A stretch of 42,145 bases of DNA. It comes from a virus. Taxonomy: Duplodnaviria > Caudoviricetes. This document shows, in pieces, positions 955 to 42,145 of the stretch (within the stretch, counting starts at the first letter, position 1; the number at the start of each line of letters is the position of its first letter). The stretch covers positions 1 to 42,145 of the IMG/VR virus record IMGVR_UViG_3300024251_000018; one strand, given 5' to 3'. Made by a program: the position numbers and the translations under genes. The notes below the pieces were generated by a model. The model saw only the letters and a program-made list of their open reading frames with translations. It was not told the DNA's origin and ran no database searches.

Positions 955-3002
955 TATTTCAATACCACGGCTTTTCCCCAACCTGAACTAGGTTGAGTGG
1001 CGGGTACAGCGGCTTTACCGCCATTGCGCAAAGCGTCTTGCGTATTGCGAATTTGTCCTGAAAGCGCATTTGTCGATGAAGCCATTTCCTTTTTAGCTTG
1101 TTCAATAATAGCCGAAACTTGTTGCGGCGTCGAAGCTGTGCTAAGATGCTTAAGCATTTCCTGCCTAGCGCCTTCTGCAACACCAGCCGAGCCGGTTGCA
1201 CCGGAAACAACTTTCGCATATTCGTTTGCAAAAGTGTTAATTGCTAGGCCAAATTTAGCAACATCTGGACTGCCTTGAACATTATTTCTATATGCTTGCT
1301 GCCAAGCGTTAATCATAGGCGAACCGCTACCGGCCGCACCTGTTCCCGCTGCTTGTACAACCAAATCGCCATTGGAAATAGCAGTGTTTTTTGCAGCCGA
1401 AACAACAGCGTTACGTTTGGTTAGATCACGAAGCGCCATTGCGTTTGCTTTGCGACCTTCTTTGACAAGCACCATTGCCGCGCCGTCATTGCCGTTGCCT
1501 TTTTGAATTTCAGCAGCGCGATTGTAAATTTGTGCTTTAAGGCCAGCGGCGGCTTTTCCCATACCGAGCGCGGGAATATCGCCACCGGCTGCAACTTGCT
1601 GCGCCAATGTTTCAATCGCATCGTGCGTAAGTGTAGGAACAGCATCTTCAGGCTTAGGCGCGCCGTGAATAACCGCAGGCGGACCACCGACAACAGCTTT
1701 CGAAGCCATTCCCGGCCCAGGTTCAATGTGGACATGATCCTTTTCGTTAATTACATCAAAACCGGGCATTTTCGCGCGAATTATTCCAGCAAAAGTTCCC
1801 ATGCTCATTCCGGCGGGTGGCACAATATCACGCGCATTATCGGTCAAATGATAACTATTTGCTACGCCGCCGACTTCTGCATTGTGGGCAGCACTACGTT
1901 GGCCGCTAGTTGGTTTTGCGCCAGGAACAAGCGAAAGAACGGTTGTCTCGATTTGATGACCCAAAGGCGGTCCTGTGTAATGACCGCCACCTGTGCCCAC
2001 AGGGGCAGTTGCACCGCCGTTGACAAGCGTTGATGTCGAACCTTCTGGCGTCGTTATATATTTAGGTTCCGGCGCAACCGATGCGATTTCCTTACCGCCG
2101 ACAAAACGAGTTTGCCCTTGCCCTAGCGTGTAAGGCTCATTAGCTTTAGCAGCAACAGCAGCGGCGGTTTCTTGCTGTTTTATATAATCAGCATAAGTTG
2201 TCGCGCTTTGAATAACATTATTCAAACCTTGATCGCTCAAATCACCAGACGCAAATTGCTTAATATGTTCAGCATCCCAACCGTGCGCAGCAAACTGCGG
2301 TGCCATAGCAGCAACAGCTTGTGTACGTTGTTCAACAGGAACATTTTTCAAAGTTGCAATTAACGGAACACTTTTTTGCGCAATGTCTAGTAATTGAGCA
2401 TGATCTTCTGCGTTCAAATCGCTAAACTGTTTTGCACCAGTTAGATTGCCAGCATTAAGCAGCAAATTACGCGCGCCAGTAGCATCGCCTTTTGCATACA
2501 TTTGCGCCGCTTGTGTCGTCAAGGCTTGATCCTTGATCGATTTAATCATAGGCTGCACTTGTGCGGCTAATTGTGGATTAGTCTGTGCGAGCGTTGAAAA
2601 TGCTTCTGTGTCATTTGGGTTTTGAATAAGCGCGCCGAACGCATTTTTGCTAATGCGATCTTCCAAGCCCGGTTGATATCCAGGTTTAGCGCCGCCAATA
2701 GCCGCGATAATATCAGCAATATGACCAAGGCCACCTAGAAACCCCTGCGGGCCATTGAAAAAGCCGTTAGGATGCTGCGCTTTAGTTGCTTGCAACATCG
2801 GCAAATCGCTCAACGATTGTTTAGGAACAAGGTTTTGCATTGTCGGAAATTGCGAAGTGTCGATAGGCGGCATTGGCATGGGTGCAGACTGCGGTTGCGT
2901 AACCGTAGTGTCGCTTCCGTAAATAGATGGATCAATTTGCAATTGCGGCGTTTCCGGCTGCAAATAGTTCATGTCGGGAAGTTTAGCAAAAGCGTTTTTC
3001 AT
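954..3002 (-). CDS. DNA ejection protein with an internal peptidase M15-like (zinc DD-peptidase) domain
   Basis: Position after the gp7-like gene; Ala/Gln-rich helical regions; motifs TSGQRS-x-AHN-x3-GGVANSYHLTDNARD and DHVHIE. Confidence 0.75.
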   Translation of the reverse strand: MKNAFAKLPDMNYLQPETPQLQIDPSIYGSDTTVTQPQSAPMPMPPIDTSQFPTMQNLVPKQSLSDLPMLQATKAQHPNGFFNGPQGFLGGLGHIADIIAAIGGAKPGYQPGLEDRISKNAFGALIQNPNDTEAFSTLAQTNPQLAAQVQPMIKSIKDQALTTQAAQMYAKGDATGARNLLLNAGNLTGAKQFSDLNAEDHAQLLDIAQKSVPLIATLKNVPVEQRTQAVAAMAPQFAAHGWDAEHIKQFASGDLSDQGLNNVIQSATTYADYIKQQETAAAVAAKANEPYTLGQGQTRFVGGKEIASVAPEPKYITTPEGSTSTLVNGGATAPVGTGGGHYTGPPLGHQIETTVLSLVPGAKPTSGQRSAAHNAEVGGVANSYHLTDNARDIVPPAGMSMGTFAGIIRAKMPGFDVINEKDHVHIEPGPGMASKAVVGGPPAVIHGAPKPEDAVPTLTHDAIETLAQQVAAGGDIPALGMGKAAAGLKAQIYNRAAEIQKGNGNDGAAMVLVKEGRKANAMALRDLTKRNAVVSAAKNTAISNGDLVVQAAGTGAAGSGSPMINAWQQAYRNNVQGSPDVAKFGLAINTFANEYAKVVSGATGSAGVAEGARQEMLKHLSTASTPQQVSAIIEQAKKEMASSTNALSGQIRNTQDALRNGGKAAVPATQPSSGWGKAVVLK

Positions 3003-3499
3003 ATGCCAAATCCCGGAATTTTGGCCAATCCAGCCGCAGCGGAACCTATGCCGCTTGCAACGTTACCGATTGCGCCAAACAATCCTTGAGTACCGCCCGT
3101 TTGAGTACCACCAGCACCGCCAATCAAACTCCCAGCCTGAACGCCAGAAGTCCCCAAACCGCCCAACTGTTGCAAATATTGCGAGAAATAATTAGCACCT
3201 AGATTAGCAGAATTATTCTGTAAAGCCTTCAATGTTGAACCTGAACCAAGCAAACCTCTAGCAGCAGCCGATCCGGTAATTCCTGCATTGGACTGTTTAA
3301 GAACGTTCTGATAACCAGCCGAATTGAGGAAATTCTGATAGCCAGTTTGAGCCGCCGCAGGATCGCCGCCGATACCCAATAGACCCGCTAAAGCATTATT
3401 AGCTTGGACGCCAGTTTGCACTTGCGGGGCGTAAGTGTCTTTTAAATAGCCGTAAGCTTGGTTACTAGATTTTGCAGCTTTCCCGGTTAAAAATGACAT
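2999..3499 (-). CDS. DNA ejection/pilot protein (P22 gp7-like)
   Basis: Start refined to MSFLTGK (ATG 3499); Gly/Ala-rich with SAAARGLLGSGSTLKALQ motif typical of this family; synteny. Confidence 0.75.
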   Translation of the reverse strand: MSFLTGKAAKSSNQAYGYLKDTYAPQVQTGVQANNALAGLLGIGGDPAAAQTGYQNFLNSAGYQNVLKQSNAGITGSAAARGLLGSGSTLKALQNNSANLGANYFSQYLQQLGGLGTSGVQAGSLIGGAGGTQTGGTQGLFGAIGNVASGIGSAAAGLAKIPGFGI

Positions 3500-3891
3500 T
3501 GTGAACGCTCCAAAATAAACAATTCCACAGGCCCATTGACCGTTTGGATCATACCATAGGAAGTAAAGCCGAGCATCCGCGTGAACAAGCGGGCGGCTCT
3601 GCAATGAGCCGGGGTGAGCCCTTTTAGCACCTTCGCTCGATACTGGTCAAATGCAATTTTAACCATCTTTCTGCCCACAAAGAGAGCCTTAGCGCCTCGA
3701 TCCGCGAAGATTGCATGAACTTGCCACGTTGATCCTTCGCACTCTAGAAGCCCTATGTTTCGGCCATCCGTGAGGGCGACGTTCAAAGGGTTAGCCAGCC
3801 ATTCCGCCGCATCGAAACCTCGATCCAAGTCTGCCATGTGGGCAGAAACCGCTTTAGTTAAAAATTCAACATTTCCGGTTGGTATAATCAT
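3487..3891 (-). CDS. GNAT-like virion assembly protein (P22 gp14 / DUF2824-like)
   Basis: Start refined to MIIPTGN (3891); WQVHAIF and GLTPAHCRAARLFTRMLGF resemble a GNAT C-terminal motif; located just before the ejection genes. Confidence 0.65.
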   Translation of the reverse strand: MIIPTGNVEFLTKAVSAHMADLDRGFDAAEWLANPLNVALTDGRNIGLLECEGSTWQVHAIFADRGAKALFVGRKMVKIAFDQYRAKVLKGLTPAHCRAARLFTRMLGFTSYGMIQTVNGPVELFILERSQCHF

Positions 3892-5537: not shown

Positions 5538-6631
5538 TAAGTTGTCCTATTGATTTGAATATTTGCAGCGTTTACCGCAGCCACAGTCCAAGGCGCAGCG
5601 GTTGCAGGATCTTCCTCGCTAATATCCATCCAATAAGTTTGAGCAACCGTAATAACGCGATCAGCGCCTAAATCGGTACTAACGCCGCTAATAAGGCCGA
5701 CTTGCAAAGTTGCATCGCCGCCGTCAGTTTTCGCCGCGCGAACCTGCGTCATCAATCCTTTAACGCTTGTAATATCAGGCGGCAAAGATGTTAACGTGCC
5801 CACATAGGCGGCGGGTGGCGGACTTCCGGCCGTGATATAATCACTCGCATCAACTGGCGGACTGCGGTTCAAAATATCCCAACCGTGCGTCGATCCTGTT
5901 GGCGTCCAATTCAAAGAAACGTCGCTATCTGGCGTAATATCTACAACCGAACAAGTGCCAATAAAATCAGTATTGTGAGCACCACTTGTGTTCCAAACAA
6001 TAAAATCTTTTAGATACATTGCAACGCTAGTTGACGTTCCAGTAGGACGACTTTGCACACTTACTTGCGCAATATCAGTTGCACCTAAATTTAATCCTGT
6101 TAATGTAATTACAGGTATACCTTCTACTCTAACTTCAACCGTTCCAACCGTTGCGCTTCTAAACACCTTAGTTTCTATATGATACCAACCATCGGCTGTT
6201 ACTATAGGACCGCCGCTATCGCCTAAAACAGTGCCAGTCCAATTTCCCGATCTAACGGAAATTATTCCAGTTGTACCGATAGTAACGCTTACAATTGCAT
6301 TATTACCAACATCAGCAAATTCGTGAGGAACGGGAATATTATTACCAGTTTGCGGCAAAGCAGCAAGCCAAGTGCGAGATGCTATTCCAAGTGTCGCAAT
6401 TGCTCCGCTTGGTAACGCATAGCGAATATGCGAAGCGTTGTTAGCGCCACCGTAACTATCTTGATCCATGCGAAAAACGATATCGCCACTTCCATCAGGG
6501 TCAGCGACAAGTGTAACGCCGTCAGTTCCCACACCGCCAGCGGTGCCGCCAATGCTCGCATAAACGCCATCTAGGAGAAAATTCTTATTCGTGCCATAAG
6601 CGCCGAAATTATCCATAAACACAATGCTCAT
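5537..6631 (-). CDS. Virion structural protein, beta-sandwich (LamG/concanavalin-like), lying between the two gp10 halves
   Basis: 364 aa, Thr/Gly/Val-rich; WYHIETKV..GTVEVRVEG motif; translationally coupled at both ends. Confidence 0.55.
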   Translation of the reverse strand: MSIVFMDNFGAYGTNKNFLLDGVYASIGGTAGGVGTDGVTLVADPDGSGDIVFRMDQDSYGGANNASHIRYALPSGAIATLGIASRTWLAALPQTGNNIPVPHEFADVGNNAIVSVTIGTTGIISVRSGNWTGTVLGDSGGPIVTADGWYHIETKVFRSATVGTVEVRVEGIPVITLTGLNLGATDIAQVSVQSRPTGTSTSVAMYLKDFIVWNTSGAHNTDFIGTCSVVDITPDSDVSLNWTPTGSTHGWDILNRSPPVDASDYITAGSPPPAAYVGTLTSLPPDITSVKGLMTQVRAAKTDGGDATLQVGLISGVSTDLGADRVITVAQTYWMDISEEDPATAAPWTVAAVNAANIQINRTT

Positions 6632-7893
6632 AGCAAAGCCGCCTGTTTTTGCATCGCTTCGCGAATGCGTTCTTCAACACTAGAATTACTAACGCGCTTA
6701 ATGCCGCCTTCAATTTGAAAAACGCCACCATCGCTATCGACAATTATCATGCTTGTTTTGACTTGAATTGCGGTGCCTTCCCAAGTTCCGCGATCAAAAG
6801 TAATACCTTGTAGCCGCGTTACCGGCGCATCAATATCGCCTGTAAAATACCAAACTTCTGTAGTGGTTTGTCCCGGCAACCAAAATTGATCGCCAAAAAC
6901 CACAACTTCAAAAATAGGGTCTGGCGCACGTTCAGCGGTGGCAAAATCTAACGGATCAATGATAATCTCACCTGGATTTATCCAATAAAAGCGACCGTTG
7001 ACACCTTGACCTTGCGCTGGAATGACAACAATGTAACTGGCAATATAAGCCACGCTAATCGCGCCAACGTCATCCGGCACAACCACATTCAACACACTAG
7101 GATCGCCACCGTTAGCGAGCGTTGCGCCGCCACTGGACCATGCCAGAGCCGCGCCTGTCTCAGTGGCGACCACACCGTCCCCTATAATGCCCACAGCAAG
7201 CGCCCTGACCCTTACCTGTGTGTTGTCAGCCTCATAGGCTTGCGCCTGTGTGTTGGCCACCAGAAGGGCCGTAGAATAGCTCGTACCGGGCACTCCAGTT
7301 GCGTTGATCGCATCCTTGGCGTTCGTAAAGGCGGCGAGGCTGTCAACGCCTAGAGCGATCAACCAAGGATTAGCACCTGTTCCGGCCGGGGTCCCTGCAT
7401 CAACCGAACCGCTTGTCCATTTATAATGAATTGAACCTAAAACAAAAATGTCATTATTCGCGGGCGTTCCTACAAGGTCGCCGCGCGCATAGCCATTTTC
7501 AATGTAAACATACAAATTGCGACCGTCAGCAATAAACAAATATTCCGGTGTACTTCCAATATTGCCAGTCGCAGCCATGCTAACATTGCCATTAGCACCG
7601 CCGAACAAACTGCCAACAATGAATGTCAGCACTTCGTCAGTTGTTAGTGTGTAAAGTTCATCGTAGCTAACGATAAACAATTGATCGTGAAAACTTCCAG
7701 GTTGGCTATAGACAGCACGAATTGGACCATTTCCAACTTCAATGAACCGCATCAAGCCAGGGCGATCAATCAACGCAACTTGCTGGTCAGTCAGTACCGG
7801 ATTTTGTTCAAAATAACGATTGCGTAGCGGAAGCCGCGCTTCCTTCGCGACTTCACGAAACCAATCGGTTTTGCCAAGAGGAACATTAGGCAT
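6628..7893 (-). CDS. P22 gp10-like tail nozzle protein, N-terminal half, with an inserted domain
   Basis: RPGL..GNGPIRAVY, DPLDFATAERAPD, TTEVWYFTG and KRVSNSSVEERIR match the N-terminal part of gp10-family proteins. Confidence 0.75.
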   Translation of the reverse strand: MPNVPLGKTDWFREVAKEARLPLRNRYFEQNPVLTDQQVALIDRPGLMRFIEVGNGPIRAVYSQPGSFHDQLFIVSYDELYTLTTDEVLTFIVGSLFGGANGNVSMAATGNIGSTPEYLFIADGRNLYVYIENGYARGDLVGTPANNDIFVLGSIHYKWTSGSVDAGTPAGTGANPWLIALGVDSLAAFTNAKDAINATGVPGTSYSTALLVANTQAQAYEADNTQVRVRALAVGIIGDGVVATETGAALAWSSGGATLANGGDPSVLNVVVPDDVGAISVAYIASYIVVIPAQGQGVNGRFYWINPGEIIIDPLDFATAERAPDPIFEVVVFGDQFWLPGQTTTEVWYFTGDIDAPVTRLQGITFDRGTWEGTAIQVKTSMIIVDSDGGVFQIEGGIKRVSNSSVEERIREAMQKQAALL

Positions 7894-8646
7894 TTACCAA
7901 GGCCACCCGTTGCCGCCAAAATTCCAACCGTAAGGACCGTTACCGTTAAAACTGGTCGCATCATATTCGCTAAGACGAAGCACGGCTGCATCCGCAGGCG
8001 TCACAACCGTTTGCGCATATCTCGCGGTGATTTGACGCTTCCAACGCTTCAATGCTTGAATTGTGCTATCTTGTGCCAACGCATTATTGCGAGGATCAAG
8101 CCTAATAGCCAGCATTGTAATAAAATAGTCGTCAAATTCTTCTGGAAAAGGCATCTCGTCAGAAGAAAGCAACCGCGTGTATCGTATCCAATTGCCAAGG
8201 TCAGCGCGGAAAATCCACGCGCCTGCTAAATCATCGCTATCGATAACAAGCGTTGCAGCGCCGTCAATGAGATAACCGTTACCATCAAGAGTTAACGGAT
8301 TAGTCGCAAAAACGCCATTTGTGGGCACAACAGAAACCCTAGAGCCGTCGCAAGGTTGAATTGGTAAAAAGATAATTTGCGGACTATCGACATTGTAAAT
8401 TAGCCGCACATTGATTGGCGGATATTGCCAAAAAACAGCATTCCAACTATAAGGAAAAGTGACATTAAGATTACCAATTGGCCAGTTATTGAGCTTTTCG
8501 CCAACCTCATTGCCAATAGTTGATAGCAAAATGGAGTTTAGACGTGTCAAGGCTTCGCGCCCTTGAACTGGCGTCGGATTGTTCAATTCGCCTAAAAGGT
8601 TGGTTTCATCATAGGCGCGTTCAAGTATCTCACTAACTTGCGTCAC
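7894..8646 (-). CDS. Head-to-tail adaptor (P22 gp4-like), paralogue 2
   Basis: N-terminal helix ..EALTRLNSILLS and C-terminal MPFPEEFDDYFITMLAIRLDPR; synteny. Confidence 0.65.
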   Translation of the reverse strand: MTQVSEILERAYDETNLLGELNNPTPVQGREALTRLNSILLSTIGNEVGEKLNNWPIGNLNVTFPYSWNAVFWQYPPINVRLIYNVDSPQIIFLPIQPCDGSRVSVVPTNGVFATNPLTLDGNGYLIDGAATLVIDSDDLAGAWIFRADLGNWIRYTRLLSSDEMPFPEEFDDYFITMLAIRLDPRNNALAQDSTIQALKRWKRQITARYAQTVVTPADAAVLRLSEYDATSFNGNGPYGWNFGGNGWPW

Positions 8647-9695
8647 TGACTACCACTCTGTTGACCTGACGGCGGAAAACCAAAACCAGCTTGGCGATTA
8701 ATCGGCAATTCGGCTTGGCGCAATCTGGATTGATTGTAGCGATAGAAAAGTTGTTCACGTTGCTGCGAAAGGCGCGCTGCGCTTTCGGCCGTCAGTGCGC
8801 GGCCATAGCGGGGATTAAGACGCATCGCCAACATGATGATAAAATAATCATCAAATTCTTCTGGAAACGGCATTTCCGCATCTTCATCCAACGGTTCAAT
8901 ACTAATCCAATTGCTTTGGTCTGAACGGTAAACCCATTGGCGACGCGATAAATCATCGTCCAAAAGAACAGAAGTTGCGCCATCAATCAGTCGTCCATTG
9001 CCCACAAGAGTTAGCGGACGTGTTGAGAAATTATTGCTCGCATCGATAGCGGAAAGCCGCTGTCCGTCTTGCGGTTGAGGATCAAGTTCGAATGATGTAG
9101 GCGCTAAAAGATTGCAAATAAGCCGCGATTGAGGTTGAACGGTAAATCCAGAACTATTTTGCGCAAAGCTAGACGGCTTCAAAATAACCGTTGTTTGCAC
9201 ACCACCTGTCATAAACGGTCCAGAGACAGTTGTATTCGAGGCAGTTTCAGAAAGATTAATCGCATTGCCAGCGGTGCCAGGAACTTGCGCGGTTAGCGTA
9301 ACAGTGCCAGTTACATTCACGCCAGTCACAAGATCGCTATCCAAACCTAAAGCCGTAACGAGATTTGCGCCGGTTGCGGTCGCATCGATGCCAATTGTAA
9401 CTTCAAACGGTACAGCGCGAGCCGCGCGAAATGTATAAACTTCATCGCCAATTGTCAGCGTTTGTGCAGCGGTCGGAATACCTGTAAAAAGCACCTGTCC
9501 GGTTGAAGCGGTAGCAGTGTTTGTTATATTCCAATCTTCAAGAATATAACCTATTTCATTACCCACAACAGATAGGATTAGCGAGTTTAGGCGCGTCAAT
9601 GCTTCGTCTGCTTCCGCTGGCGTCGGATTAGCGCCAATGGAAATGATATCGCTTTCCCGTAAGGATTGTGTAATTAGATCAGAGACAATCGTCAT
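8643..9695 (-). CDS. Head-to-tail adaptor (P22 gp4-like), paralogue 1, with an inserted domain of about 108 aa
   Basis: MTIVSDLITQSLRES..EALTRLNSLILS and MPFPEEFDDYFIIMLAMRLNPRYG; clear similarity to 7894..8646. Confidence 0.7.
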   Translation of the reverse strand: MTIVSDLITQSLRESDIISIGANPTPAEADEALTRLNSLILSVVGNEIGYILEDWNITNTATASTGQVLFTGIPTAAQTLTIGDEVYTFRAARAVPFEVTIGIDATATGANLVTALGLDSDLVTGVNVTGTVTLTAQVPGTAGNAINLSETASNTTVSGPFMTGGVQTTVILKPSSFAQNSSGFTVQPQSRLICNLLAPTSFELDPQPQDGQRLSAIDASNNFSTRPLTLVGNGRLIDGATSVLLDDDLSRRQWVYRSDQSNWISIEPLDEDAEMPFPEEFDDYFIIMLAMRLNPRYGRALTAESAARLSQQREQLFYRYNQSRLRQAELPINRQAGFGFPPSGQQSGSQ

Positions 9696-17132: not shown

Positions 17133-17170
17133 GATTGGTTAATATCTGCCCACATGAGGCTTGGCAAGCC

Positions 17171-23368: not shown

Positions 23369-23480
23369 TTAACATAATCCGTTCTCGTTATGTCTTGCCC
23401 ACAGAATGGCGTCGGATGTTCAGTGGCAGCGCGGGAGCCGAATTGCTCCCGATGCGGTCTGTTGCCCCGGAAATCGCATC

Positions 23481-23710: not shown

Positions 23711-23799
23711 TTCAAATCTCCCGTTTCAATGACACCTTTTTAATGGGCAATTATTAACAAGTCAATAACAAAATGCAATCTTTTTATCGTGCCCACATT

Positions 23800-31876: not shown

Positions 31877-32046
31877 AAACTAAGTTGCGCGTAATAGATG
31901 ACTCTCATTCTTGGGATATTGCTTATGGTAAAACCTCTATGCGCAAACTTATTCCAATCGGTCGCATGGGCCTTTCTATCACCGAAAAGCGAAAGGGCGA
32001 TTGGTATTGGTCTAGCTTTGAAAGAAAGTGGAAGGTGGTTGAGTGA
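31873..32046 (+). CDS. Hypothetical protein (57 aa)
   Basis: Begins MKTKLRVID; ATGA and GTGA overlaps; not in the ORF track. Confidence 0.55.
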   Translation: MKTKLRVIDDSHSWDIAYGKTSMRKLIPIGRMGLSITEKRKGDWYWSSFERKWKVVE

Positions 32047-32864: not shown

Positions 32865-32866
32865 TC

Positions 32867-33514
32867 ATGCCGAGCTTTCAATTTGACGCATCCCAACATC
32901 GCCCAGAATATGGCGGCGGCGGCTTTCTCCCTGTGGGCAAGCATCCGGTTATGATTGTTGAAACCGAGTTGAAGCCGACGAAGGACACGCACGGTGGCTA
33001 TCTCGCTTTGACAATGGAGGCTGTTGACGGTCCGGCGAAGGGAACAAAACACACAGATCGCCTTAACCTTCATAATTCAAATACAATGACGGTTGAAATC
33101 GCCAATAAGCAGCTTTCTGCCTACTGTTATGTCACTGGCGTTTTCAAATTTGCAGACACAAATGAGCTTTGCCGCCGTCCGTTTGTTGTGGAAATTGCGC
33201 CGCAAAAGAACCGACCTGAATTGACCGAAGTTGTTGCCGTTTATACCAGCGACATGCGCAAGCCTGCGGAAGTGCTACAGTCGGGAAACGCGCCCGCGCA
33301 GTCGGCAGCGATCCCGCCTGCCCAGACTGCGGCCCCTTCACAAGCCATCCCTGCCCAAACGGATGCCCAGGCCAATACTGCGTCCCATTTTGAAGCCCCT
33401 AAAGCCGATGCGTGGGGCAACGCGAACGCAACGCCTTCGCCTGCTGCATCCGCTTGGACGGCTGGCAATGCTAATCCCAGCGTGCCGCCTCCATGGGGAC
33501 CATCTGCGTCCTAA
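32867..33514 (+). CDS. DUF669-type ssDNA-binding protein
   Basis: LPVGKH..GGYLAL..DRLNLHN..VEIA..L; Ala/Pro-rich tail ending PPPWG. Confidence 0.8.
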   Translation: MPSFQFDASQHRPEYGGGGFLPVGKHPVMIVETELKPTKDTHGGYLALTMEAVDGPAKGTKHTDRLNLHNSNTMTVEIANKQLSAYCYVTGVFKFADTNELCRRPFVVEIAPQKNRPELTEVVAVYTSDMRKPAEVLQSGNAPAQSAAIPPAQTAAPSQAIPAQTDAQANTASHFEAPKADAWGNANATPSPAASAWTAGNANPSVPPPWGPSAS

Positions 33515-33547
33515 TTGAGCGTTGCGGGGTCAGAGCCCGCGCCTCAA

Positions 33548-33631
33548 TCTAGCCGCGCAACGGGAATTGGAAGCGTCGATCCCCGTTGTTTCAGCCAGAG
33601 CGCTTACAGGTGTATGCGTTGCGCGGCTAGA
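33548..33631 (+). other. Intergenic 15-bp perfect inverted repeat (structured RNA candidate)
   Basis: TCTAGCCGCGCAACG 33548-33562 pairs with CGTTGCGCGGCTAGA 33617-33631. Confidence 0.8.
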
Positions 33632-33645
33632 CTAAGGAGTTTCAA

Positions 33646-34446
33646 TTGGACACCGTTAAACTTAAATTCGATATTGACGCCGCTTGCGTTGAACATTTCC
33701 GCGAAGGCCACCGCTGGCACATGGGCGCATCGATAATTGGTCATGAATGCGAGCGTTATATTTGGAGTACATTTCGTTGGTTAAAAGCTGAAGAATTTAA
33801 CGGGCGTATGTATCGGTTATTTGAGCGCGGGCAATTGGAGGAAAATCGGTTTGTAAAGTCACTTTCTCTCGCGGGCATTAATGTACAAGAATATGATCCT
33901 ACGACCGGCAAACAATATCGAGTATCTGCCCACAATGAACATTTCGGAGGCTCGCTTGACGGCATCGGCACAGCCGGTTTCCTTGTCGAGTTCAAAACCC
34001 ACGGTGAAAGATCCTTCATCGATCTAACCAAGCATGGTGTAGCTCACAGTAAACCTCAACACGTCGCGCAAATGCAAACATATGGACCATTTTATAACTT
34101 GGACTACGGCCTATATTGCGCAGTTAATAAAAATACAGACGAATTTCATTTTGAATGGCTTCGTCTAGATAGAACTGTCGGCGCTTTGCATGTCGAAAAA
34201 GCCGGACGCTTGATTTACAGCCAAATCGCGCCGCCTAAGATTAGCGAAACGCCGACCTTTTTTAAGTGTAAGTTTTGCCACTTTTCTGGGATTTGTCATA
34301 GCAATCATATACCAGATAAGAATTGTCGCAGTTGTAAATTTGCATCGCCTGTTGAAAATGGCGAGTGGTTTTGTTCAATGTTTGGGAACGATATACCTAG
34401 GGATTTTGTGCCTAAAGGTTGCCAAGAATGGGTTGCGATAGTATAG
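33646..34446 (+). CDS. Cas4/RecB-like PD-(D/E)XK exonuclease
   Basis: GASIIGHEC, GSLDG..EFKT, QMQTY, CKFCHFSGIC; TAAGGAG RBS with a TTG start. Confidence 0.85.
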   Translation: MDTVKLKFDIDAACVEHFREGHRWHMGASIIGHECERYIWSTFRWLKAEEFNGRMYRLFERGQLEENRFVKSLSLAGINVQEYDPTTGKQYRVSAHNEHFGGSLDGIGTAGFLVEFKTHGERSFIDLTKHGVAHSKPQHVAQMQTYGPFYNLDYGLYCAVNKNTDEFHFEWLRLDRTVGALHVEKAGRLIYSQIAPPKISETPTFFKCKFCHFSGICHSNHIPDKNCRSCKFASPVENGEWFCSMFGNDIPRDFVPKGCQEWVAIV

Positions 34447-34940
34447 TGGTAGGTCATCGTAATCTCTCTTGGCAAAAATTCGGACGTTTATTCGTCAAAG
34501 AATTTGCTTACTCTAAAAATAATCGCGGTTATTGGGTTTGCGAGTGTGAATGCGGAAATTTTAAAACGGTATGCGATAGCGAACTATTGAGAGGAAATGT
34601 TAAATCGTGCGGTTGCTATCGCAAGGATAGGCTAACGGTTCACGGTCATAATCGCCTGGATAGCGGCCCTTCTCCGACGCATAATAGCTGGCGAGGAATG
34701 CGCGAAAGATGCGACGATCCGAACAATATAAACTATCCTAGATATGGCGCTTTGGGCGTCACGGTGTTCCCACAATGGGCGCTTTTCGAGAATTTCCTAA
34801 GCGATATGGGAGAGCGACCGGCTGGGAAAACGCTAGATAGAATTAATCCGTTCGGTAATTACGAACCTTCAAATTGCCGATGGACAACCTATAAAGAACA
34901 GAGCGCAAATAAACGAGCAAACTATGACCCTTGCGCTTAG
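34446..34940 (+). CDS. HNH-type homing endonuclease
   Basis: WVCECECG, SCGC, WRGMRERC, TLDRINPFGNYEPSNCRW; GTG start overlaps the upstream TAG. Confidence 0.85.
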   Translation: MVGHRNLSWQKFGRLFVKEFAYSKNNRGYWVCECECGNFKTVCDSELLRGNVKSCGCYRKDRLTVHGHNRLDSGPSPTHNSWRGMRERCDDPNNINYPRYGALGVTVFPQWALFENFLSDMGERPAGKTLDRINPFGNYEPSNCRWTTYKEQSANKRANYDPCA

Positions 34941-36579
34941 AGAATATCAACACAACGCAGTTGAAAGCGTATTTAATTATATTTGCAGCCGCACCGGCAC
35001 TGACCAATTCGGGCAACCCTATTCTGCTAACCCTTTATTAGGTTTGCCGTGTCGCAGCGGCAAAAGCCTGATAATTGCCGGAATTATCAAACGAGCATTT
35101 GAGATTTATTCTAAAACGCGCATTGTAATGGTAACTGATGTTAAAGAACTAGTCGTTAATAGCTATAACGATTTACTCGCATATTGGCCAAACTCCCCTG
35201 TGGGCATTTTATCTGCCGGGTTAAAATCTAAAGATATTCATTATCCGATTATATATGGAACATTGCAAACCGTTGTAAATTACGATTTAGGCTATCGTGA
35301 CTTCCTCATAATCGACGAAAGTCAAATGGTTTCAGATAAAGAGCAATCTCAATATCAACAAATCATTGCGCAGTTAAAAAAGCGCAATCCTTTTTTACGT
35401 GTTATTGGTATGAGCGCCACAAATTACAGACAAGGCAGCGGCTGTCTTACTAACGGTAGCGTGTTTTCCGATATAGTTTTTAATATGTGTAATATTGAAG
35501 GTTATGCTTATTTGCTTGCACAAGGCTATATTGTACCTGTTATATCCAAAAGAACAATAAATTTTATAGATACAACTGGAATAGGACGCGGGCAAGACGG
35601 AGATTTCAATAAACGCCAATTAGAGGAACTTTCTGACAATAACGACTTGAACTACAAAATGATGCAAGAAAGTTGCTATTATGGCCGTGACCGTCGTTCG
35701 TGGATTGTTTATGCAAATGGGATTAAACACGCCGAAGACTTGAACCAAATGTTAAACGAAAAATTTGGAGTTAGTTCAACAGTTGTTCATTCTAAAATGC
35801 CGTCGCATTTGCGTGACCAAAGAATTGCCGCTTACGACGCTGGCGAATATCGATGCCTTGTTAATAAAGACATTTTGACAAAAGGATACAATAATAAAAA
35901 TATTGACCTTTTAATAATGACACGCGCAACTATGTCTGTACCGCTTTGGGTGCAAATTGGTTCAAGAGGAATGACACCTGCGCTTGGAAAGACAAACTGT
36001 CTGTTACTAGATTTCGGACGTAATGTTGAGCGGTTAGGCAGGATCGATAATCCTTTGATCCCGAAAGGTAGAGGAAAAGGACCACCTGAAGAACCGCCTG
36101 TTAAAGAATGCGAAGCGTGCGGCGTTTACAACTTTTTGTCAGCGAGATTTTGCGAAGCGTGCGGAGCGGAATTTAAATTTAGAGAAAAGCTGATCGGAAC
36201 CGCTGGTAAAATCGAACCGATGGGTTCAGATTTACCGCAAATCGAAACCTTTTCTGTCACGCACGTCACTTACTCTAAACACGTCAAAAACGACATTCGC
36301 CGCGCTAATCCTGAGAAGTCGCTAGAGGAACTTCCTTTTTCTATCAAAGTGAGCTACTATTGCGGCGAACAGGTTTTTACAGAATGGGTTACGGTTGAAA
36401 GCGATAAGACATTCGTCAAACACAAAGGGCACGAATGGTTCAGGCAACGGTTGCACGGTTTGCCACCTGAGACTAATGAACAATTGCTTGCGCAATGTAG
36501 CTATGCGCGGACGCCTAAAAGTGTTAGAGTGTGGACGAATAAAGTTAAATATCCTGAGATTGTCGGAGTTGAATGGTGA
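34924..36579 (+). CDS. Superfamily 2 helicase (RadD/YejH-like) with a zinc finger
   Basis: LREYQ, SGKS, IIDESQ, SAT, QIGSRGM, CEAC..CEAC. Confidence 0.9.
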   Translation: MTLALREYQHNAVESVFNYICSRTGTDQFGQPYSANPLLGLPCRSGKSLIIAGIIKRAFEIYSKTRIVMVTDVKELVVNSYNDLLAYWPNSPVGILSAGLKSKDIHYPIIYGTLQTVVNYDLGYRDFLIIDESQMVSDKEQSQYQQIIAQLKKRNPFLRVIGMSATNYRQGSGCLTNGSVFSDIVFNMCNIEGYAYLLAQGYIVPVISKRTINFIDTTGIGRGQDGDFNKRQLEELSDNNDLNYKMMQESCYYGRDRRSWIVYANGIKHAEDLNQMLNEKFGVSSTVVHSKMPSHLRDQRIAAYDAGEYRCLVNKDILTKGYNNKNIDLLIMTRATMSVPLWVQIGSRGMTPALGKTNCLLLDFGRNVERLGRIDNPLIPKGRGKGPPEEPPVKECEACGVYNFLSARFCEACGAEFKFREKLIGTAGKIEPMGSDLPQIETFSVTHVTYSKHVKNDIRRANPEKSLEELPFSIKVSYYCGEQVFTEWVTVESDKTFVKHKGHEWFRQRLHGLPPETNEQLLAQCSYARTPKSVRVWTNKVKYPEIVGVEW

Positions 36580-37178
36580 ATGTCCTTATCGGTTGCGAAG
36601 AAAGCGGAGTTGGCAGGCGCGTTTGGCGCGAACGCGGCCATAACGCTTGGTCAAATGACCTTATCGCAGCAAGGGATAATTCGTTTCATCATTTGCGTTG
36701 CGATGTTATGCAAGCTTTGGATATGCACCTTTGGGATATAATAATCTTGCATCCTGACTGCACAAAAATGACGGTTGCAGGAAACAGAACTTATGCTGAT
36801 ACGCAAGAGCGATTAGATCAAGTTTCATGGACAGAAGCGTTATATCTTAAAGCTAAATCAAAAGCTAAAATTGGCGTTTGCTTGGAAAATCCCGTTTCCG
36901 TTTTCTTTTCTCATATGCGCAATAAATACGGTTTGAAAGTACAATATATTCAACCTTATGAGCATGGCCATTTGGAACAAAAGAAAACAGGTTTGCTATT
37001 AGACAACTTACCGCATTTAACGCCATCTAATTTCGTTTACGAAAAGATGATGCAATTGCCAGTAAACGAGAGAGAGCGAATATTTTATATGGCGCCTGGA
37101 CCAAATCGAAGCCGCGACCGCAGCGAAAGTTATTCGGGAATTTTAGGCGCAATGGCAGATCAATGGGGAATTTTATGA
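36573..37178 (+). CDS. Cytosine-C5 methyltransferase-like protein (short phage family)
   Basis: VLIGCEESG, HPDCT (motif IV variant), LENPVS (motif VI), KKTGL, AMADQWG. Confidence 0.7.
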   Translation: MVNVLIGCEESGVGRRVWRERGHNAWSNDLIAARDNSFHHLRCDVMQALDMHLWDIIILHPDCTKMTVAGNRTYADTQERLDQVSWTEALYLKAKSKAKIGVCLENPVSVFFSHMRNKYGLKVQYIQPYEHGHLEQKKTGLLLDNLPHLTPSNFVYEKMMQLPVNERERIFYMAPGPNRSRDRSESYSGILGAMADQWGIL

Positions 37179-37690
37179 TTGTATTTTGCGATACTGAAAC
37201 TACGGGCATAGGCCCAACCGCCCGCGTCATTCAAATAGCAATGGACCTTTGCACCGATGACGGACGCACAGTCGCAACGCTCAACACAATCATTAATCAA
37301 GAAACACCCTGTCATTCGCGCGCCTTAGAAGTTCACGGTATAACTGATGCAATGCAAGCAACAGGACTAGACCGCTACGTCGCTGGCAACCTGATAAGCA
37401 AAATAGCAGCCGAAGCACATGTCATTATCGGACATAATATCCCGTTCGATATTGACATGTGTAAACAAAGTTTTATGAGCGTACATCTGCCTTTTGCAAG
37501 CTACTGTACAATGCGAACGCTAACGCCAGTTTGTAAAATTCCGTCACCAAAAGGCGGTTTGAAATGGCCAAAGCTAAGCGAGGCTTATCGGCACTTTTTC
37601 AATGAGGATTTTGATAACGCACATAATGCTTGGGCAGACGTGCAAGCTTGCAAGAGGCTTTATTTTAAGTGTAAGGAACTAGGTTTATGA
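37175..37690 (+). CDS. DEDDh 3'-5' exonuclease (DnaQ-like)
   Basis: DTETTG, VHGI, HNIPFD, AHNAWADV; start refined to the ATGA overlap. Confidence 0.92.
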   Translation: MIVFCDTETTGIGPTARVIQIAMDLCTDDGRTVATLNTIINQETPCHSRALEVHGITDAMQATGLDRYVAGNLISKIAAEAHVIIGHNIPFDIDMCKQSFMSVHLPFASYCTMRTLTPVCKIPSPKGGLKWPKLSEAYRHFFNEDFDNAHNAWADVQACKRLYFKCKELGL

Positions 37691-37770
37691 CAACGGGACA
37701 ATCTTTTGCTTTATCGCTTGCATTTTGCGTTTTAACGCTTTGCGTAACGATTGTGTTAACGACAAGATGA
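37687..37770 (+). CDS. 27-aa single-TM micropeptide
   Basis: MTTGQSFALSLAFCVLTLCVTIVLTTR; ATGA overlaps at both ends; not in the ORF track. Confidence 0.6.
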   Translation: MTTGQSFALSLAFCVLTLCVTIVLTTR

Positions 37771-38732
37771 CCCTTCGCAAAGCCGTCGAATTTGTTAAAC
37801 CTGCGTCAAACGACGAATTGGCGTCCCACGCCTATCTGCGCATAGGTGGGGGCTACGTCACGGCCAGCGACGGCACCATAAGCGCCGGTTATCCGATAGA
37901 CGAGGATTTGGCCGTCTGCCCACATGCTGACAAGCTGGCAAGCGCCTTGAAGCGCGTAGGCGACCGCTACAGCGTGACGGCGCTGGATAGTGGCCGGTTA
38001 TCAGTCAAAGGTGCCAAGCTACGCGCTGTGGTGCCCTGTGTGGCCGCTGAGACGCTTCCAAGCGTGGCACCGGACCCGAACATCGCCCCGATAGGCGAGC
38101 CGCTGAGACAGGCGTTCAAGACCCTGGTCCCGCTGGTCAAGGAAGATGGACAGCGGCTTATCGAATATAGCTTTTTGATTAACAATGGCAGCATGAGTGC
38201 AACAAACGGCAATGTTATATTGCAATATTGGCATGGAACCGATTTACCACCAAATCTCATCATTCCGAGAAAATTTGGATTGCTCGCTTCCAAAGTTGAA
38301 GGATTGGTCGGATTTGGTTTTTCTGACAAATCGGTCACCTTTTGGTACGAAAATGCCGCTTGGCTGCGGACTAGTTTATGCGTTGGAGAATGGCCAGATA
38401 TCGATAAGCTATTGACTATCGAAGCAACCGCTAAACCGTTGCCCACGGACTTTTTCGAGGCTATTCAAAGCGTGGCGGATTTCTCAGATGATGGCGCGAT
38501 ACGCCTCTCGCCCGGAAAGGTCAAATCCAGCTACGTCGAACAAGGCGGTGATGGCCCGGTAACAGGTGCCAGCTTCGATTGCGAGGGATTGGACGCCAAA
38601 GCGACTTTTAACATTAAGTTACTAAGTTTGCTTAACGGCGTTGCAACTTCCATGGATTTTGCTACGCATGAAGATCGCGCGGTTTTCTATGGCGAGAATG
38701 TGCGCGGTGTGATTGCTAAGAGGAATTTCTAA
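37767..38732 (+). CDS. DNA sliding clamp (Pol III beta-like)
   Basis: About 320 aa; ASDG and SATNG repeats, GEWPDIDKLL, FNIKLL; directly before the polymerase as in KL1/PA73-like phages; start refined to MTLRK. Confidence 0.75.
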   Translation: MTLRKAVEFVKPASNDELASHAYLRIGGGYVTASDGTISAGYPIDEDLAVCPHADKLASALKRVGDRYSVTALDSGRLSVKGAKLRAVVPCVAAETLPSVAPDPNIAPIGEPLRQAFKTLVPLVKEDGQRLIEYSFLINNGSMSATNGNVILQYWHGTDLPPNLIIPRKFGLLASKVEGLVGFGFSDKSVTFWYENAAWLRTSLCVGEWPDIDKLLTIEATAKPLPTDFFEAIQSVADFSDDGAIRLSPGKVKSSYVEQGGDGPVTGASFDCEGLDAKATFNIKLLSLLNGVATSMDFATHEDRAVFYGENVRGVIAKRNF

Positions 38733-38830
38733 TTTTCTTCGATAATCTCCCAATTGAGCCAAAATCAAAAAACGTCGCGATAACCCGCGACCAACTAACT
38801 ATTGTCAATTATCCGCCCAAACCGCGTCAA

Positions 38831-40621
38831 ATGGCAACCAAACCGTGGCCACTAGGCGATGAAGTTATTTTTGACATAGAATTGTATCCAAACTTTTTCA
38901 TGTGCGGCGTGAAGCACATTAAAAGCCAAACTTACATGGCGCTAAGTGACCCTAAACAAATGTCCTACATTCTGTGGGGATATAAGGTTATCGGTTTCAA
39001 CTCATTTAATTATGACGTACCGATTATTAAAGCTGCGATCAAAGGAGCATCATTAGATGAACTTCGAGAAATTTCTCGCGATATTATTTTTCGCGAGCTT
39101 CGCATGGGCAATCGTAATGACCGCTTTAATCATATCGATATCATTGAAGTAGCGCCATTACAAGAAAGTCTTAAAACCTACGCGGGACGCTTGCATTGCG
39201 AGCGTATGCAGGATTTGCCATTTGATCCGGCTTTGCCGCTGAGCGATGCGCAAAAGGAAATTGTTACGGATTATTGCTTTAACGATTTGGACAATACGGA
39301 ATTGCTTTATGAGGAGTTACGTCCGTTCATAGCCTTGCGGGAAACGCTTGGCGAAAAATACGGAATGGAACTTCGCAGCAAATCTGATGCGCAGATTGCT
39401 GAAGCGGTGATTATGCATGAATTGGAGAATATTACCGGCTATCCGGTTGAGCGGCCGAATTATAGTGAAGGTTACACGTTTCGGTATAAAGTGCCGGATT
39501 GGTTATCGTTCTATACCGCACCGCTGCAAATCGCACTAGATACTATAACAAATGCAACTTTCAGTCTAGACAAAAACGGCTCGCCAATGTTGCCAGAAGA
39601 AATTGCAAAATTGAATATCGGTATAGGAACAAGCAACTATAAAATGGGAATTGGCGGACTGCATTCGACTGAAAAAAGCATTGCTCACAAATCAACAAAC
39701 AGTATTCAGTTGAGCGATTTTGACGTTGCGAGTTTTTATCCTGCGATTATTCTAAATTGCGGTTTAACGCCGAAACATCTTGGCGAAAATTTCCTAATTG
39801 TATTTCGCACATTAGTAGAACGTCGATTAATTGCTAAAGGCAAAAATAAAGTCGAAGCCGATGCTCTTAAGATACTTGTAAACGGAACATTTGGAAAGCT
39901 AGGTTCGCCTTATTCCAGATTATACGCACCGGAGTTGTTAATTCAAGTTACCATGACTGGACAGCTTGCATTGCTCATGCTTATTGAAAGTTTAGACGAT
40001 AGCGATTTGCCAGTTGTTTCCGCTAATACGGACGGCGTTATCGTCAAATATGACAAAGACGATTACCATAAACTATATAGCAAAGCTAAACATTGGGAAG
40101 CCGTAACAGGTTTTGTTTTAGAAGAAACGCAATTCAAAGCCACTTACAACCGTGACGTTAACAATTTTATAAATGTCAAAACAGACGGTGAAATAAAAGC
40201 CAAAGGAATTTACACTGAATTAGGTTCAGCGCTTAATTCGCGCTTGTCGAAAAACCCCGAAACGCTCGTTATCAGCGACGCGCTCAAAGCCTTCTTGTCT
40301 GTGGGCACACCGTTACGCGACACTGTCGAAGCTTGCCAGGATATGCGACGTTTCGTCGCAATCCGAAAAGCAACTGGCGGTGCCCACAAAGATGGCGTCT
40401 ATCTAGGCAAGGTTGTTCGCTGGTATTATGCCAAAGGCGCAACCGGCGTCATATCCAAGATGAACGGTGACGCAGTGCCAAAGACAGAAGGCGCAAAGCC
40501 GCTCATGCTTCTAGCTGGACTAGAGCCTGATATCGATTACGATTGGTATGTTAACGCGGCTGAAAGTGCTTTATTTGATTTGGGATATTATCAACGACCA
40601 ACGGAAAGAAAGTTACTTTAA
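38831..40621 (+). CDS. Family B DNA polymerase with a proofreading domain (true start possibly ATT 38732)
   Basis: Exo FDIE, FNSFNYD, YCFND; pol DFDVASFYP, KILVNGTFGK, SANTDG. Confidence 0.92.
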   Translation: MATKPWPLGDEVIFDIELYPNFFMCGVKHIKSQTYMALSDPKQMSYILWGYKVIGFNSFNYDVPIIKAAIKGASLDELREISRDIIFRELRMGNRNDRFNHIDIIEVAPLQESLKTYAGRLHCERMQDLPFDPALPLSDAQKEIVTDYCFNDLDNTELLYEELRPFIALRETLGEKYGMELRSKSDAQIAEAVIMHELENITGYPVERPNYSEGYTFRYKVPDWLSFYTAPLQIALDTITNATFSLDKNGSPMLPEEIAKLNIGIGTSNYKMGIGGLHSTEKSIAHKSTNSIQLSDFDVASFYPAIILNCGLTPKHLGENFLIVFRTLVERRLIAKGKNKVEADALKILVNGTFGKLGSPYSRLYAPELLIQVTMTGQLALLMLIESLDDSDLPVVSANTDGVIVKYDKDDYHKLYSKAKHWEAVTGFVLEETQFKATYNRDVNNFINVKTDGEIKAKGIYTELGSALNSRLSKNPETLVISDALKAFLSVGTPLRDTVEACQDMRRFVAIRKATGGAHKDGVYLGKVVRWYYAKGATGVISKMNGDAVPKTEGAKPLMLLAGLEPDIDYDWYVNAAESALFDLGYYQRPTERKLL

Positions 40622-40906: not shown

Positions 40907-40918
40907 TTATTTTATGGG

Positions 40919-42145
40919 TTATTTCTTCTCATTCGCAGCGGGTACAGATTGACCGCTTAAAACGTCTTTAAGAGCGTTTTGCAACATTGTTATTTCGGTG
41001 CGACCGCCCGGTGTCGATCCGGCTACCTTCGGTAATTGTGCTACCAGATTACGAATAACACTAGGTTGATTATTAACTGCCGCTTTCGCTGCTAGTTTAG
41101 TCCAATTGCGACCGGCCGGCGAACGCAACAAAATCTTTGCCGCACCGTTAAGAACTATCGGAGTTGCAATACCGGCCGAAATGGCAGTTTGAAAATCGCC
41201 GCCTAGCAAATGAGTAATTGCACTAATACCAAGTCCGGCTGTAGTTGCACTAGTTGCTGTATTACTAGTATTGCGCGTTTTGTCGATATCGCGAAGACGC
41301 GAAGCATATTTGGCAATATCTTGTATATCTCGATCCGCCGCGCTACCGCTAAAAATAAGTCTTTTCCCATCTTGTGACATTTTATTATAGTTAGTTAAAA
41401 AAGTATTAAATGACCAATTATCGCCAACCGCATTTTGTGCGCCTGGATTAGCGCGGCCCATAATATCCAGATGCGACGCCGCCACATTGCCGCGATTTGC
41501 CGCAGGAAGGTTTGCCCACAATTGGCGAGCGCGTTGAATATTGCCGCCGCGATCATTCAAGTCATTTGCAAATTGATTATAGACGCTTTCTGCCGAAGTA
41601 TTAACATCGTCCCGCGCCGACGCGGAAGCGCGCTTAAGCGAGCCGCCAAGCTGTTGCTTCATCGCAGCATATGCCGCGTCGGCCGCCGTTTGATTAGCAG
41701 CCGCAGATGGCGCGGCCGGATTAAGCGAAGCATTGAACGTGTCCGCCGCTTTCGCCGATGACATTACATCGTTTTCAAGCGCCTGTTCCAAACTACCGAC
41801 ACGATTTTTAATCTCCGAAGAAATGTCATTTTTAGTTGCTAAACGTCGCACTTCGCCGCGCACATGCGAAAGCAAATTAGTTGCTTCTTTAAGCGTAAAT
41901 TCTTCTGGCGTTGTTGAAAGTTTTGTAACAAGCGGTGTATTGAAAATTTGTTGCAAAGCAGGTGGCAAGTTTGGAAAATCCTGCTTTATCTTGTCATAGA
42001 CCGCCTTTGTTTCTGTGGGCAGAACAGGTGCATTATCGCCGCCCATGGCAGCGGTGCGCGCATCATATTTAGCGCCAGCGTCGGCTTTGCCAGCCGCTTC
42101 AAAAGCGTTTTTACCTTCAACAATGGCATTTCCGGCAGTTTCCCT
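40919..42145 (-). CDS. 3' part of the junction-spanning 682-aa ejection protein
   Basis: In frame with 1..954 through the terminal repeat; helical Ala-rich; WSFNTFLTNYNKMS..NTSNTAT. Confidence 0.8.
   Translation of the reverse strand, partial: RETAGNAIVEGKNAFEAAGKADAGAKYDARTAAMGGDNAPVLPTETKAVYDKIKQDFPNLPPALQQIFNTPLVTKLSTTPEEFTLKEATNLLSHVRGEVRRLATKNDISSEIKNRVGSLEQALENDVMSSAKAADTFNASLNPAAPSAAANQTAADAAYAAMKQQLGGSLKRASASARDDVNTSAESVYNQFANDLNDRGGNIQRARQLWANLPAANRGNVAASHLDIMGRANPGAQNAVGDNWSFNTFLTNYNKMSQDGKRLIFSGSAADRDIQDIAKYASRLRDIDKTRNTSNTATSATTAGLGISAITHLLGGDFQTAISAGIATPIVLNGAAKILLRSPAGRNWTKLAAKAAVNNQPSVIRNLVAQLPKVAGSTPGGRTEITMLQNALKDVLSGQSVPAANEKK
42014..42145. repeat. Terminal direct repeat (right copy)
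   Basis: Matches 1-132 with one mismatch. Confidence 0.97.

Follow-up and report, generated by a model that had tools for sequence, protein, structure and literature searches.

The primase-helicases of phages T7 (gp4) and T4 (gp61) read short template words at kb spacing for Okazaki priming. As DnaG-type enzymes that recognize sites of 3-5 nt and make RNA primers, they are unlike the system considered here, namely an 8-nt word, TGTGGGCA, dispersed throughout the genome of a tailed phage (Caudoviricetes; IMG/VR record IMGVR_UViG_3300024251_000018, positions 1 to 42,145, with this whole 42,145-nt stretch being called the window below), and the fused primase-polymerase (Prim-Pol)/helicase encoded by the same genome. 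Chi sites, the targets of RecBCD and AddAB, are over-represented non-palindromic words found inside genes, with their reader being host-encoded.

Homologous to the window enzyme is the Prim-Pol of phage NrS-1, for which the published consensus of preferred priming sites is 5'-NTTGPuPyPyA-3', i.e., NTTGRYYA (PMC10250227). NrS-1 Prim-Pol primes more efficiently at 5'-GTGG-3' or GTGA, starting just upstream, and mutants at R249, K251, and Y261 lose most primase activity (PMC8718748). The primase of the archaeal plasmid pRN1, ORF904, shares with the window protein a GTG core, read by the helix bundle, and the combination of Prim-Pol, helix bundle, and helicase, yet reads a 3-nt site rather than an 8-nt word; what determines the priming specificity of NrS-1-type enzymes was termed unresolved in 2023 (PMC10250227). 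That members of this enzyme family prime in a sequence-specific manner is already known. In Staphylococcus aureus pathogenicity islands (SaPIs) and related phage-inducible chromosomal islands (PICIs), Rep helicases, of the SF3 type, bind clustered iterons via their C-terminal domain (PMC9371898), unlike what is seen in the window, although the first 260 residues of the 752-residue window protein find their best PDB sequence match in SaPI5 PriRep5 (7OLA; E 1e-22).

Comparison of the N-terminal domain of the window protein with NrS-1 N300 yielded 28% identity (E 3e-14), while a structure model of the complete protein (pLDDT 88.6) gave NrS-1 N300 as the top fold match (E 2e-13), followed by MCM helicases. 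The catalytic residues align with NrS-1 D78, D80, S108-P109-S110, and H115; across 56 homologues, D84, D86, S111, and H118 are invariant, P112 and S113 are near-invariant, and E135, Y137, and R141 are invariant or near-invariant. The helix bundle matched PF22763, corresponding to that of NrS-1, at E 4.6e-5 and 23.6 bits, under the curated cut-off of 27.9. By alignment and modelling, the window protein contains NrS-1-like catalytic and helix-bundle domains and may be capable of de novo, sequence-dependent DNA priming. No sequence match to NrS-1 was found past residue 261, with the fused helicase being an MCM-like DUF3987 protein and not one of the NrS-1/SF3 type; unlike NrS-1, the window also encodes a separate polymerase and clamp.

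The sites can be similarly compared. The word family, T-G-T-G-R-N-Y-A, keeps positions 3, 4, 5, 7, and 8 of the NrS-1 consensus (T3, G4, R5, Y7, and A8) and contains GTGR, differing at position 2 and, in the window variant, at position 6; like the NrS-1 site, the word is 8 nt long and non-palindromic, and it includes the GTGG core known from NrS-1 (PMC8718748, PMC10250227, PMC7102993). TGTGGTTA, found in relatives of the window, lies one base from NrS-1 TTTGGTTA. The original prediction had assumed TTTGGTTA to be enriched in the NrS-1 genome. This was wrong, as only one exact copy was detected; it lies among some ten clustered GGTTACAC repeats that immediately follow the polymerase gene and have been described as a possible origin (PMC10250227). 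By contrast, the window offers one exact word distributed evenly on each strand and no such cluster. Origin-like clusters are present in NrS-1, phi105, and CL2, while no iteron cluster follows the rep gene in the window, in the 19 lytic relatives scanned, or in 9NA. Dispersed words in NrS-1 are weak (TGTGGACA, 7 copies vs. 1.0 expected; ATAGACA, 21 vs. 5). Two such weak words, TGTGGACA and ATAGAC, were noted in L087 (NrS-1) and L425, with neither being among the top words of the whole contig behind L425.

In the window, TGTGGGCA appears 12 times on the plus strand and as its reverse complement, TGCCCACA, 17 times, so that the manual count of at least 29 copies was exact, as were all coordinates. 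An order-2 Markov model predicts 0.65 copies, close to the earlier estimate of about 1. TGTGGGCA is the most enriched 8-mer, present at 0.69/kb, with each of its 24 single-base variants reaching five copies at most. The further claims that the copies are mostly genic, use all six codon phases, and reflect selection on the DNA were likewise borne out. Called genes hold 27 of the 29 copies, 15 on the coding strand (phases 11/2/2) and 12 on the template strand (6/4/2). In 1,000 within-gene synonymous shuffles, the codon-preserving test set beforehand, a mean of 2.4 and a maximum of 8 copies were obtained, as compared to 27 observed; genome-wide codon resampling gave a mean of 1.6 and a maximum of 7. 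The enrichment is real and results from selection at the DNA level. The window begins and ends with the same 132 nt (positions 1-132 and 42014-42145), opening at a motif copy; positions 1-8 repeat site 42014 with one letter different and, being the same site, leave the circular count at 29. Contigs from three soil runs, two of which may be the source of this DNA, span position 42014 unbroken. The window end was therefore treated as an assembly end, and the idea that the genome starts at a terminus or nick was discarded. The data sets listed as containing matching sequence are soil metagenomes, with no RNA data set among them.

The distribution of the word was considered in 60 whole or near-whole genomes, comprising 41 IMG/VR contigs, 18 cultured phages, and the window; a single-protein scan of viral contigs had recovered no relative. 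From the sets of loci compared here and below, those under 7-9 kb and duplicates were left out. Fifty-three genomes carry the phage-type helicase half together with most genes of a replication and recombination module, some genes having been missed where contigs are cut. By our own count, the top dispersed 8-mer contains TGTGG in 46 of these 53, being either TGTGGGCA or a form ending in -TCA, -TTA, -ACA, -CCA, or -GTA. At least 15 copies were counted in 43 of the module genomes and 6-14 in six. Examples include Pseudomonas phage 73 (TGTGGGCA, 19 vs. 0.3 expected), Paracoccus phage R3 (TGTGGGCA, 26 vs. 0.8), PaMx25 (TGTGGTCA, 32 vs. 1.9), VogelGryff (TGTGGTTA, 47 vs. 2.6), and JenP1 (34 plus 22 copies of word-family variants). 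Motif-carrying module genomes range from 36 to 63% GC, infect differing hosts, and include podo- and sipho-type virions and differing polymerases. The motif-rich among them also differ in their virion genes, exonuclease, methyltransferase, and helix-turn-helix (HTH) gene, with HTH going undetected in about half and Cas4 being present in nearly all. Across 42 genomes, 1182 in-gene copies were found vs. 115 under synonymous resampling (coding to template strand, 657:525 observed and 68:47 under the null). In the gut-type relatives L122 and L142, top words contain TGTGA (e.g., TGTGATTA and CTGTGATG) and not TGTGG.

Outside this lineage the word falls to background. A TGTGG word ranked on top in none of the seven distant temperate or other-helicase phages of the set, and all five portal (virion) relatives lacking a Prim-Pol match hold 0-2 copies, one having been read only in its first half. 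Five bacterial chromosomes carry 33-137 copies per 3.2-4.7 Mb (0.01-0.03/kb), with E. coli K-12 presenting 91 copies vs. 104 for the reversed control. Neither outcome named in the original prediction as speaking against it, namely equal enrichment in the host chromosome or in relatives without the Prim-Pol, was thus seen, the chromosomes being those five, which need not include that of the window's own host.

Among loci reduced from 159 to 140 by removal of duplicates, the variant employed follows the clade of the primase domain, with one clade using GGGCA, a second, relaxed clade using GG(T/A/C)CA, and a third using GGTYA; L118 and L102 are exceptions. In the GGGCA clade, the final helix of the bundle contains FD, as compared to mostly IR in the other clades. 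One variant is common to Paracoccus, Pseudomonas, and Klebsiella phages, while two Pseudomonas phages differ in variant, such that the same word serves phages infecting either alpha- or gammaproteobacteria, and phages of a single host genus may carry different words. The predicted co-variation of top word and Prim-Pol accordingly holds at the level of clades, those two exceptions and an equally good fit of other gene trees (below) apart. The specificity, foreseen as a new one of this Prim-Pol, proved neither private nor wholly new, as the word is common to many phages of one lineage and includes GTGG, a site already shown for NrS-1 (PMC8718748).

Spacing was addressed in 42 genomes containing 1479 sites, with 18 of the 60 having been excluded (17 with under 15 copies, one near-duplicate). 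Pairs 8-400 bp apart on the same strand numbered 45 vs. 224 expected; on opposite strands, 209 vs. 213. Since repulsion acts within but not across strands, reading of the word, which is non-palindromic, strand-specific, and independent of reading frame, is confined to a single strand or direction. Sites were more evenly placed than random on 78 of 82 strands, with same-strand gaps peaking at 1.2-3 kb (723 vs. 423 expected; median gap 2155 bp) and being depleted below 800 bp (124 vs. 383) and above 6 kb (83 vs. 157). In the window, sites lie more evenly than random when the strands are taken singly (P about 0.02 for one, 0.014 for the other) and not when they are pooled (P 0.13), with opposite-strand copies lying as close as 39, 81, and 111 bp. 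The earlier proposal of priming sites set a few kb apart on each strand agrees with this spacing. Strand polarity about the Prim-Pol gene (146:115 downstream, 108:160 upstream) was not used, being confounded by coding-strand bias, and an upstream pyrimidine bias present in the window was gone across genomes.

Judging from sequence, the words are most likely template priming sites read by the phage Prim-Pol. In the mechanism proposed, the primase-helicase would read TGTGGGCA on single-stranded DNA and there initiate strand synthesis, probably at intervals of 2-3 kb, in the style of a lagging strand. While the helicase half would unwind the DNA, the helix bundle and catalytic domain would dock on 5'-TGTGGGCA-3' and lay a primer just 5' of the word, as in NrS-1, with the separate phage polymerase and clamp then extending that primer. 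Forks would probably be started by recombination involving Sak4, SSB, the Cas4-like nuclease, and the SF2 helicase. The presence of sites on both strands and the lack of an iteron cluster suggest that forks run in both directions. As bacterial chromosomes contain 20-100 times fewer copies of the word per kb, priming would stay confined to phage DNA.

Additional indications as to the reader came from more distant relatives of the primase domain (n = 70, from 131 before duplicate removal; controls went from 46 to 43, with 2 more dropped for a primase match). TGTGG was found within the top ten 7-mer cores in seven of the 70 vs. none of 50 controls (rank test P 0.0096). In four of five such contigs without a Cas4 match (a single-protein search of limited sensitivity), the top word has a GTG core, i.e., AGTGTGGA (16 vs. 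0.6 expected), CGTGGA, CCCGTG, and TGTGTTT, with the fifth offering none. The pooled TGTGGA excess, 1.53 in distant relatives vs. 1.22 in controls and only partly above the latter, was not used. The signal from the top-ranking cores, itself weak, favors the primase domain.

The word was also found in bacterial genomes, in small low-GC integrated elements, mostly adjoining a tRNA, where it occurs about once per kb, with flanks near background. These elements encode an integrase, AlpA/excisionase, Pri-Rep or Rep, and sometimes TerS; no match to Cas4, SF2, Sak4, SSB, clamp, or DUF7173 was found in them. With an integrase, a regulator, Pri-Rep/Rep, small size, a tRNA site, and no virion genes in that part of each element's open reading frames (ORFs) scanned, they are PICI-like elements. 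Borders were set by eye, with fixed windows serving for most of the other-clade set. Five elements with a G-clade primase domain hold 25 copies of TGTGGGCA vs. 1.0 expected, one of the five holding only one, and two copies of other variants vs. 3.2; in all four scanned, the primase domain is joined to non-phage-type helicases (about 25% identical, or AAA_25). In nine loci with other-clade primases, TGTGGGCA occurs 6 times vs. 3.4 expected and other variants 31 times vs. 9.4, nearly all in four loci. Among these nine, L553 is a full-module phage, while three of the four variant-rich loci were annotated and are satellite-like as well. A TerS of family phrog_5334 is encoded by the window (18798-19217) and by elements L551 (7983-8681), L554 (6530-7165), and L557 (12337-12843), which hints, on gene content, at helpers like the window phage. 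It is likely that the integrated elements parasitise these phages. In L551 and L554, the Pri-Rep gene is immediately followed by a second ORF (12204-13301 and 12246-13277, respectively) that partly resembles primase-helicase family members. Taken together, homologue biochemistry, distant elements, and integrated elements favor, by analogy and sequence, the primase domain as reader.

A number of observations weigh against that assignment. No word passed threshold in four of the 53 module genomes, no top-ten TGTGG word was found in 63 of the 70 distant relatives, spacing was not clearly regular in eight distant genomes, and five of the nine other-clade loci hold at most one copy. The compared genomes are related, and motif sets were picked after the data had been seen. 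No general pyrimidine bias was detected upstream of sites across genomes, the sole departures being an excess of A at -2 (0.42 vs. 0.24) and a shortage of G from -2 through -4. On gene trees, motif position 6 changes twice for the Prim-Pol N-terminus, its helicase, Cas4, DUF7173, and the clamp, and three to four times for Sak4, SSB, and SF2, such that trees fail to separate Prim-Pol from the Cas4-like nuclease, clamp, or DUF7173. L118 (G007) carries 43 copies of TGTGGGCA, 22 of TGTGGTTA, and 19 of TGTGGTCA, although belonging to the T clade in every module gene; a scan of diagnostic columns, in which the Prim-Pol alignment overran into the helicase, revealed, among the columns listed, no convergent Prim-Pol residue explaining this genome, which is possibly a specificity switch in progress. 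Even spacing is also compatible with a polar Chi-like site. Finally, ten elements carrying only a phage-type helicase hold 52 copies vs. 1.4 expected, with no primase match even at E 10.

In the helicase tree, these helicase-only elements arise from four separate points within the G clade. In L572, 10 of that genome's 33 copies fall within the 7.9-kb element, bounded by a 15-nt repeat at tRNA-Cys; a further helicase-only locus was found in one of 401 genomes of one class. A primase domain elsewhere in the host genome was not matched in four of the five hosts searched, these being incomplete genomes. Because the elements carry the word without a primase, its reader there would have to act in trans or be the helicase, and the class cuts both ways, supporting either reading via a helper or reading by the helicase itself. 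That the word is a dispersed, iteron-like site at which the C-terminal helicase half loads or binds, rather than a priming site, gains from these elements and from the binding of iterons by SaPI Rep helicases via their C-terminal domain (PMC9371898). Still, the same word occurs in those elements where the primase domain is joined to unrelated helicases, the iterons of NrS-1, phi105, and CL2 cluster at one origin whereas the window word is dispersed, and opposite-strand sites show no repulsion, all of which render this explanation distinctly unlikely. Priming in trans fits both element classes as well as the biochemistry; a Chi-like mark directed at a helper nuclease fits both classes too. In that scheme, the Cas4-like exonuclease and SF2 helicase would read the word as a polar self-mark, halt resection, and promote Sak4 recombination, with satellites copying the mark to escape the helper nuclease. 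A non-palindromic 8-mer evenly spaced on each strand would be in keeping with such a role, as would the near-universal Cas4 of motif-rich genomes, a Cas4 tree that agrees with the variant no less than the Prim-Pol tree does, and the primase-less elements, which need no extra step. It is nonetheless distinctly unlikely as well, given GTG-core words in autonomous-looking elements with a primase domain and no Cas4 match in that same limited search, a word family matching in vitro sites of the homologous NrS-1 primase, and element variants matching their own primase clade; Chi-like enrichment was not seen in the five chromosomes, and phage nick motifs (PMC11780129) and Chi are other words, neither of which is known to follow a primase clade.

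Reading by a host factor or a double-stranded DNA-binding phage regulator could be imagined, as an HTH gene adjoins the Prim-Pol gene in the window. Yet one word serves phages of two proteobacterial classes and different words a single host genus, chromosomes stand at background, HTH is missing from about half of the motif-rich genomes, and the repulsion is strand-specific, making such a site highly improbable. Lower still is the likelihood that the word marks programmed nicking or packaging of virion DNA. Nick motifs dispersed within genes have been described, e.g., WACTRTGAC, and the assembly happens to begin at a copy; however, WACTRTGAC is another word of another family, whose sites crowd one side of the genome (PMC11780129), opposite-strand copies of the window word can be as near as 39 bp, the word is common to genomes with unrelated terminase, portal, and capsid types, and contigs run unbroken across 42014, albeit from runs of which two may be the source.

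Table 1. Sites of the word, the proposed reader, and associated features (window coordinates unless a locus is named)
Feature	Position	Strand	Basis
TGTGGGCA site	1883..1890	+	word count
TGTGGGCA site	1994..2001	-	word count
TGTGGGCA site	3672..3679	-	word count
TGTGGGCA site	3837..3844	+	word count
TGTGGGCA site	5797..5804	-	word count
TGTGGGCA site	7188..7195	-	word count
TGTGGGCA site	8320..8327	+	word count
TGTGGGCA site	8999..9006	-	word count
TGTGGGCA site	12112..12119	+	word count
TGTGGGCA site	12491..12498	-	word count
TGTGGGCA site, intergenic	17147..17154	-	word count
TGTGGGCA site	18861..18868	+	word count
TGTGGGCA site	19278..19285	-	word count
TGTGGGCA site	20875..20882	-	word count
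TGTGGGCA site	23396..23403	-	word count
TGTGGGCA site, intergenic	23790..23797	-	word count
TGTGGGCA site	25657..25664	+	word count
TGTGGGCA site, within Prim-Pol gene	26944..26951	-	word count
TGTGGGCA site, within Prim-Pol gene	26983..26990	+	word count
TGTGGGCA site, within Prim-Pol gene	27723..27730	-	word count
TGTGGGCA site	28906..28913	+	word count
TGTGGGCA site	32932..32939	+	word count
TGTGGGCA site	33927..33934	-	word count
TGTGGGCA site	35199..35206	+	word count
TGTGGGCA site	37917..37924	-	word count
TGTGGGCA site	40300..40307	+	word count
TGTGGGCA site	40381..40388	-	word count
TGTGGGCA site	41513..41520	-	word count
TGTGGGCA site, opens 132-nt assembly overlap, same site as 1-8	42014..42021	+	word count
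Prim-Pol/helicase fusion, 752 aa, proposed motif reader	26501..28759	-	phrog_3022 E 1e-189; Pfam; PDB; structure model
Catalytic Prim-Pol domain, aa ~1-170 (D84, D86, S111-P112-S113, H118, E135, Y137, R141)	28250..28759	-	conserved in 56 homologues; NrS-1 alignment
Helix-bundle domain, aa ~188-275 (R253, K255, Y262)	27935..28198	-	align to NrS-1 R249, K251, Y261
C-terminal DUF3987 helicase, MCM-like AAA+ fold	26504..27847	-	Pfam DUF3987; fold search
Co-inherited replication/recombination module: DUF7173, Sak4, SSB, Cas4-like exonuclease, HNH, SF2 helicase, methyltransferase, 3'-5' exonuclease, clamp, DNA polymerase	31448..40621	+	PHROG and Pfam matches; presence across relatives
Helicase-only PICI-like elements, DUF3987 without primase domain, TGTGGGCA-rich	L572:7725-15606; L556, L557, L558, L561, L564, L565, L566, L567, L571		
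Origin-like repeat clusters after primase gene, three temperate phages	L087:17060-17380 (NrS-1); phi105 33820-34080; L005:32057-32294		

Other features of the window and its relatives were also noted. The window phage has a P22-like portal and coat. Its HNH endonuclease gene (34419-34940) sits between those encoding the Cas4-like exonuclease and the SF2 helicase. A 12-bp tandem array of more than 40 units (29468-30200) lies within a 525-residue DUF6745 gene (29314-30891), with a similar array in relative L007, and an Ala-rich 9/12-bp repeat tract (25051-25242) lies inside ORF 24752-25282. The neighboring tail/connector genes at 7894-8646 and 8643-9695 contain DNA segments 72-79% alike, reflecting an old tandem duplication. 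ORFs 4743-5537 and 6628-7893, between which another gene intervenes, match two halves of head-closure family phrog_578, and a 38-nt inverted match (82%) links 4028-4065 and 26387-26424, 22 kb apart. Prim-Pol homologues P0031, P0116, and L071, of about 1100 residues, present extra Pfam matches (PF05203/PF14528), likely intein insertions.

In the literature searched, mostly outside subscription journals, no report was found of these related words, of their even placement along each strand, or of satellites exploiting them. A broader scenario, the chances of which are put at about even, is that the genomes of this phage lineage carry throughout their length an 8-letter priming code private to the lineage, with one site per Okazaki-length stretch on each strand, and that satellites hijack the code, some having captured the helper primase-helicase and repeatedly lost its primase half while keeping the helper sites, to be primed in trans by the infecting phage. 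For the natural variants GGGCA, GGTCA, GGTTA, GGACA, GGCCA, GGGTA, and AGGCA, some 90 corresponding enzyme sequences are available, those of VogelGryff and JenP1, phages of E. coli K-12, among them, which makes the recognition code directly testable. If true, these phages would possess a replisome in which priming is addressed to self DNA, with fragment length being written in the genome; this would constrain the recoding of such phages and provide a source of site-specific primases. The integrated elements would, moreover, represent a new form of satellite parasitism, acting on replication instead of packaging.

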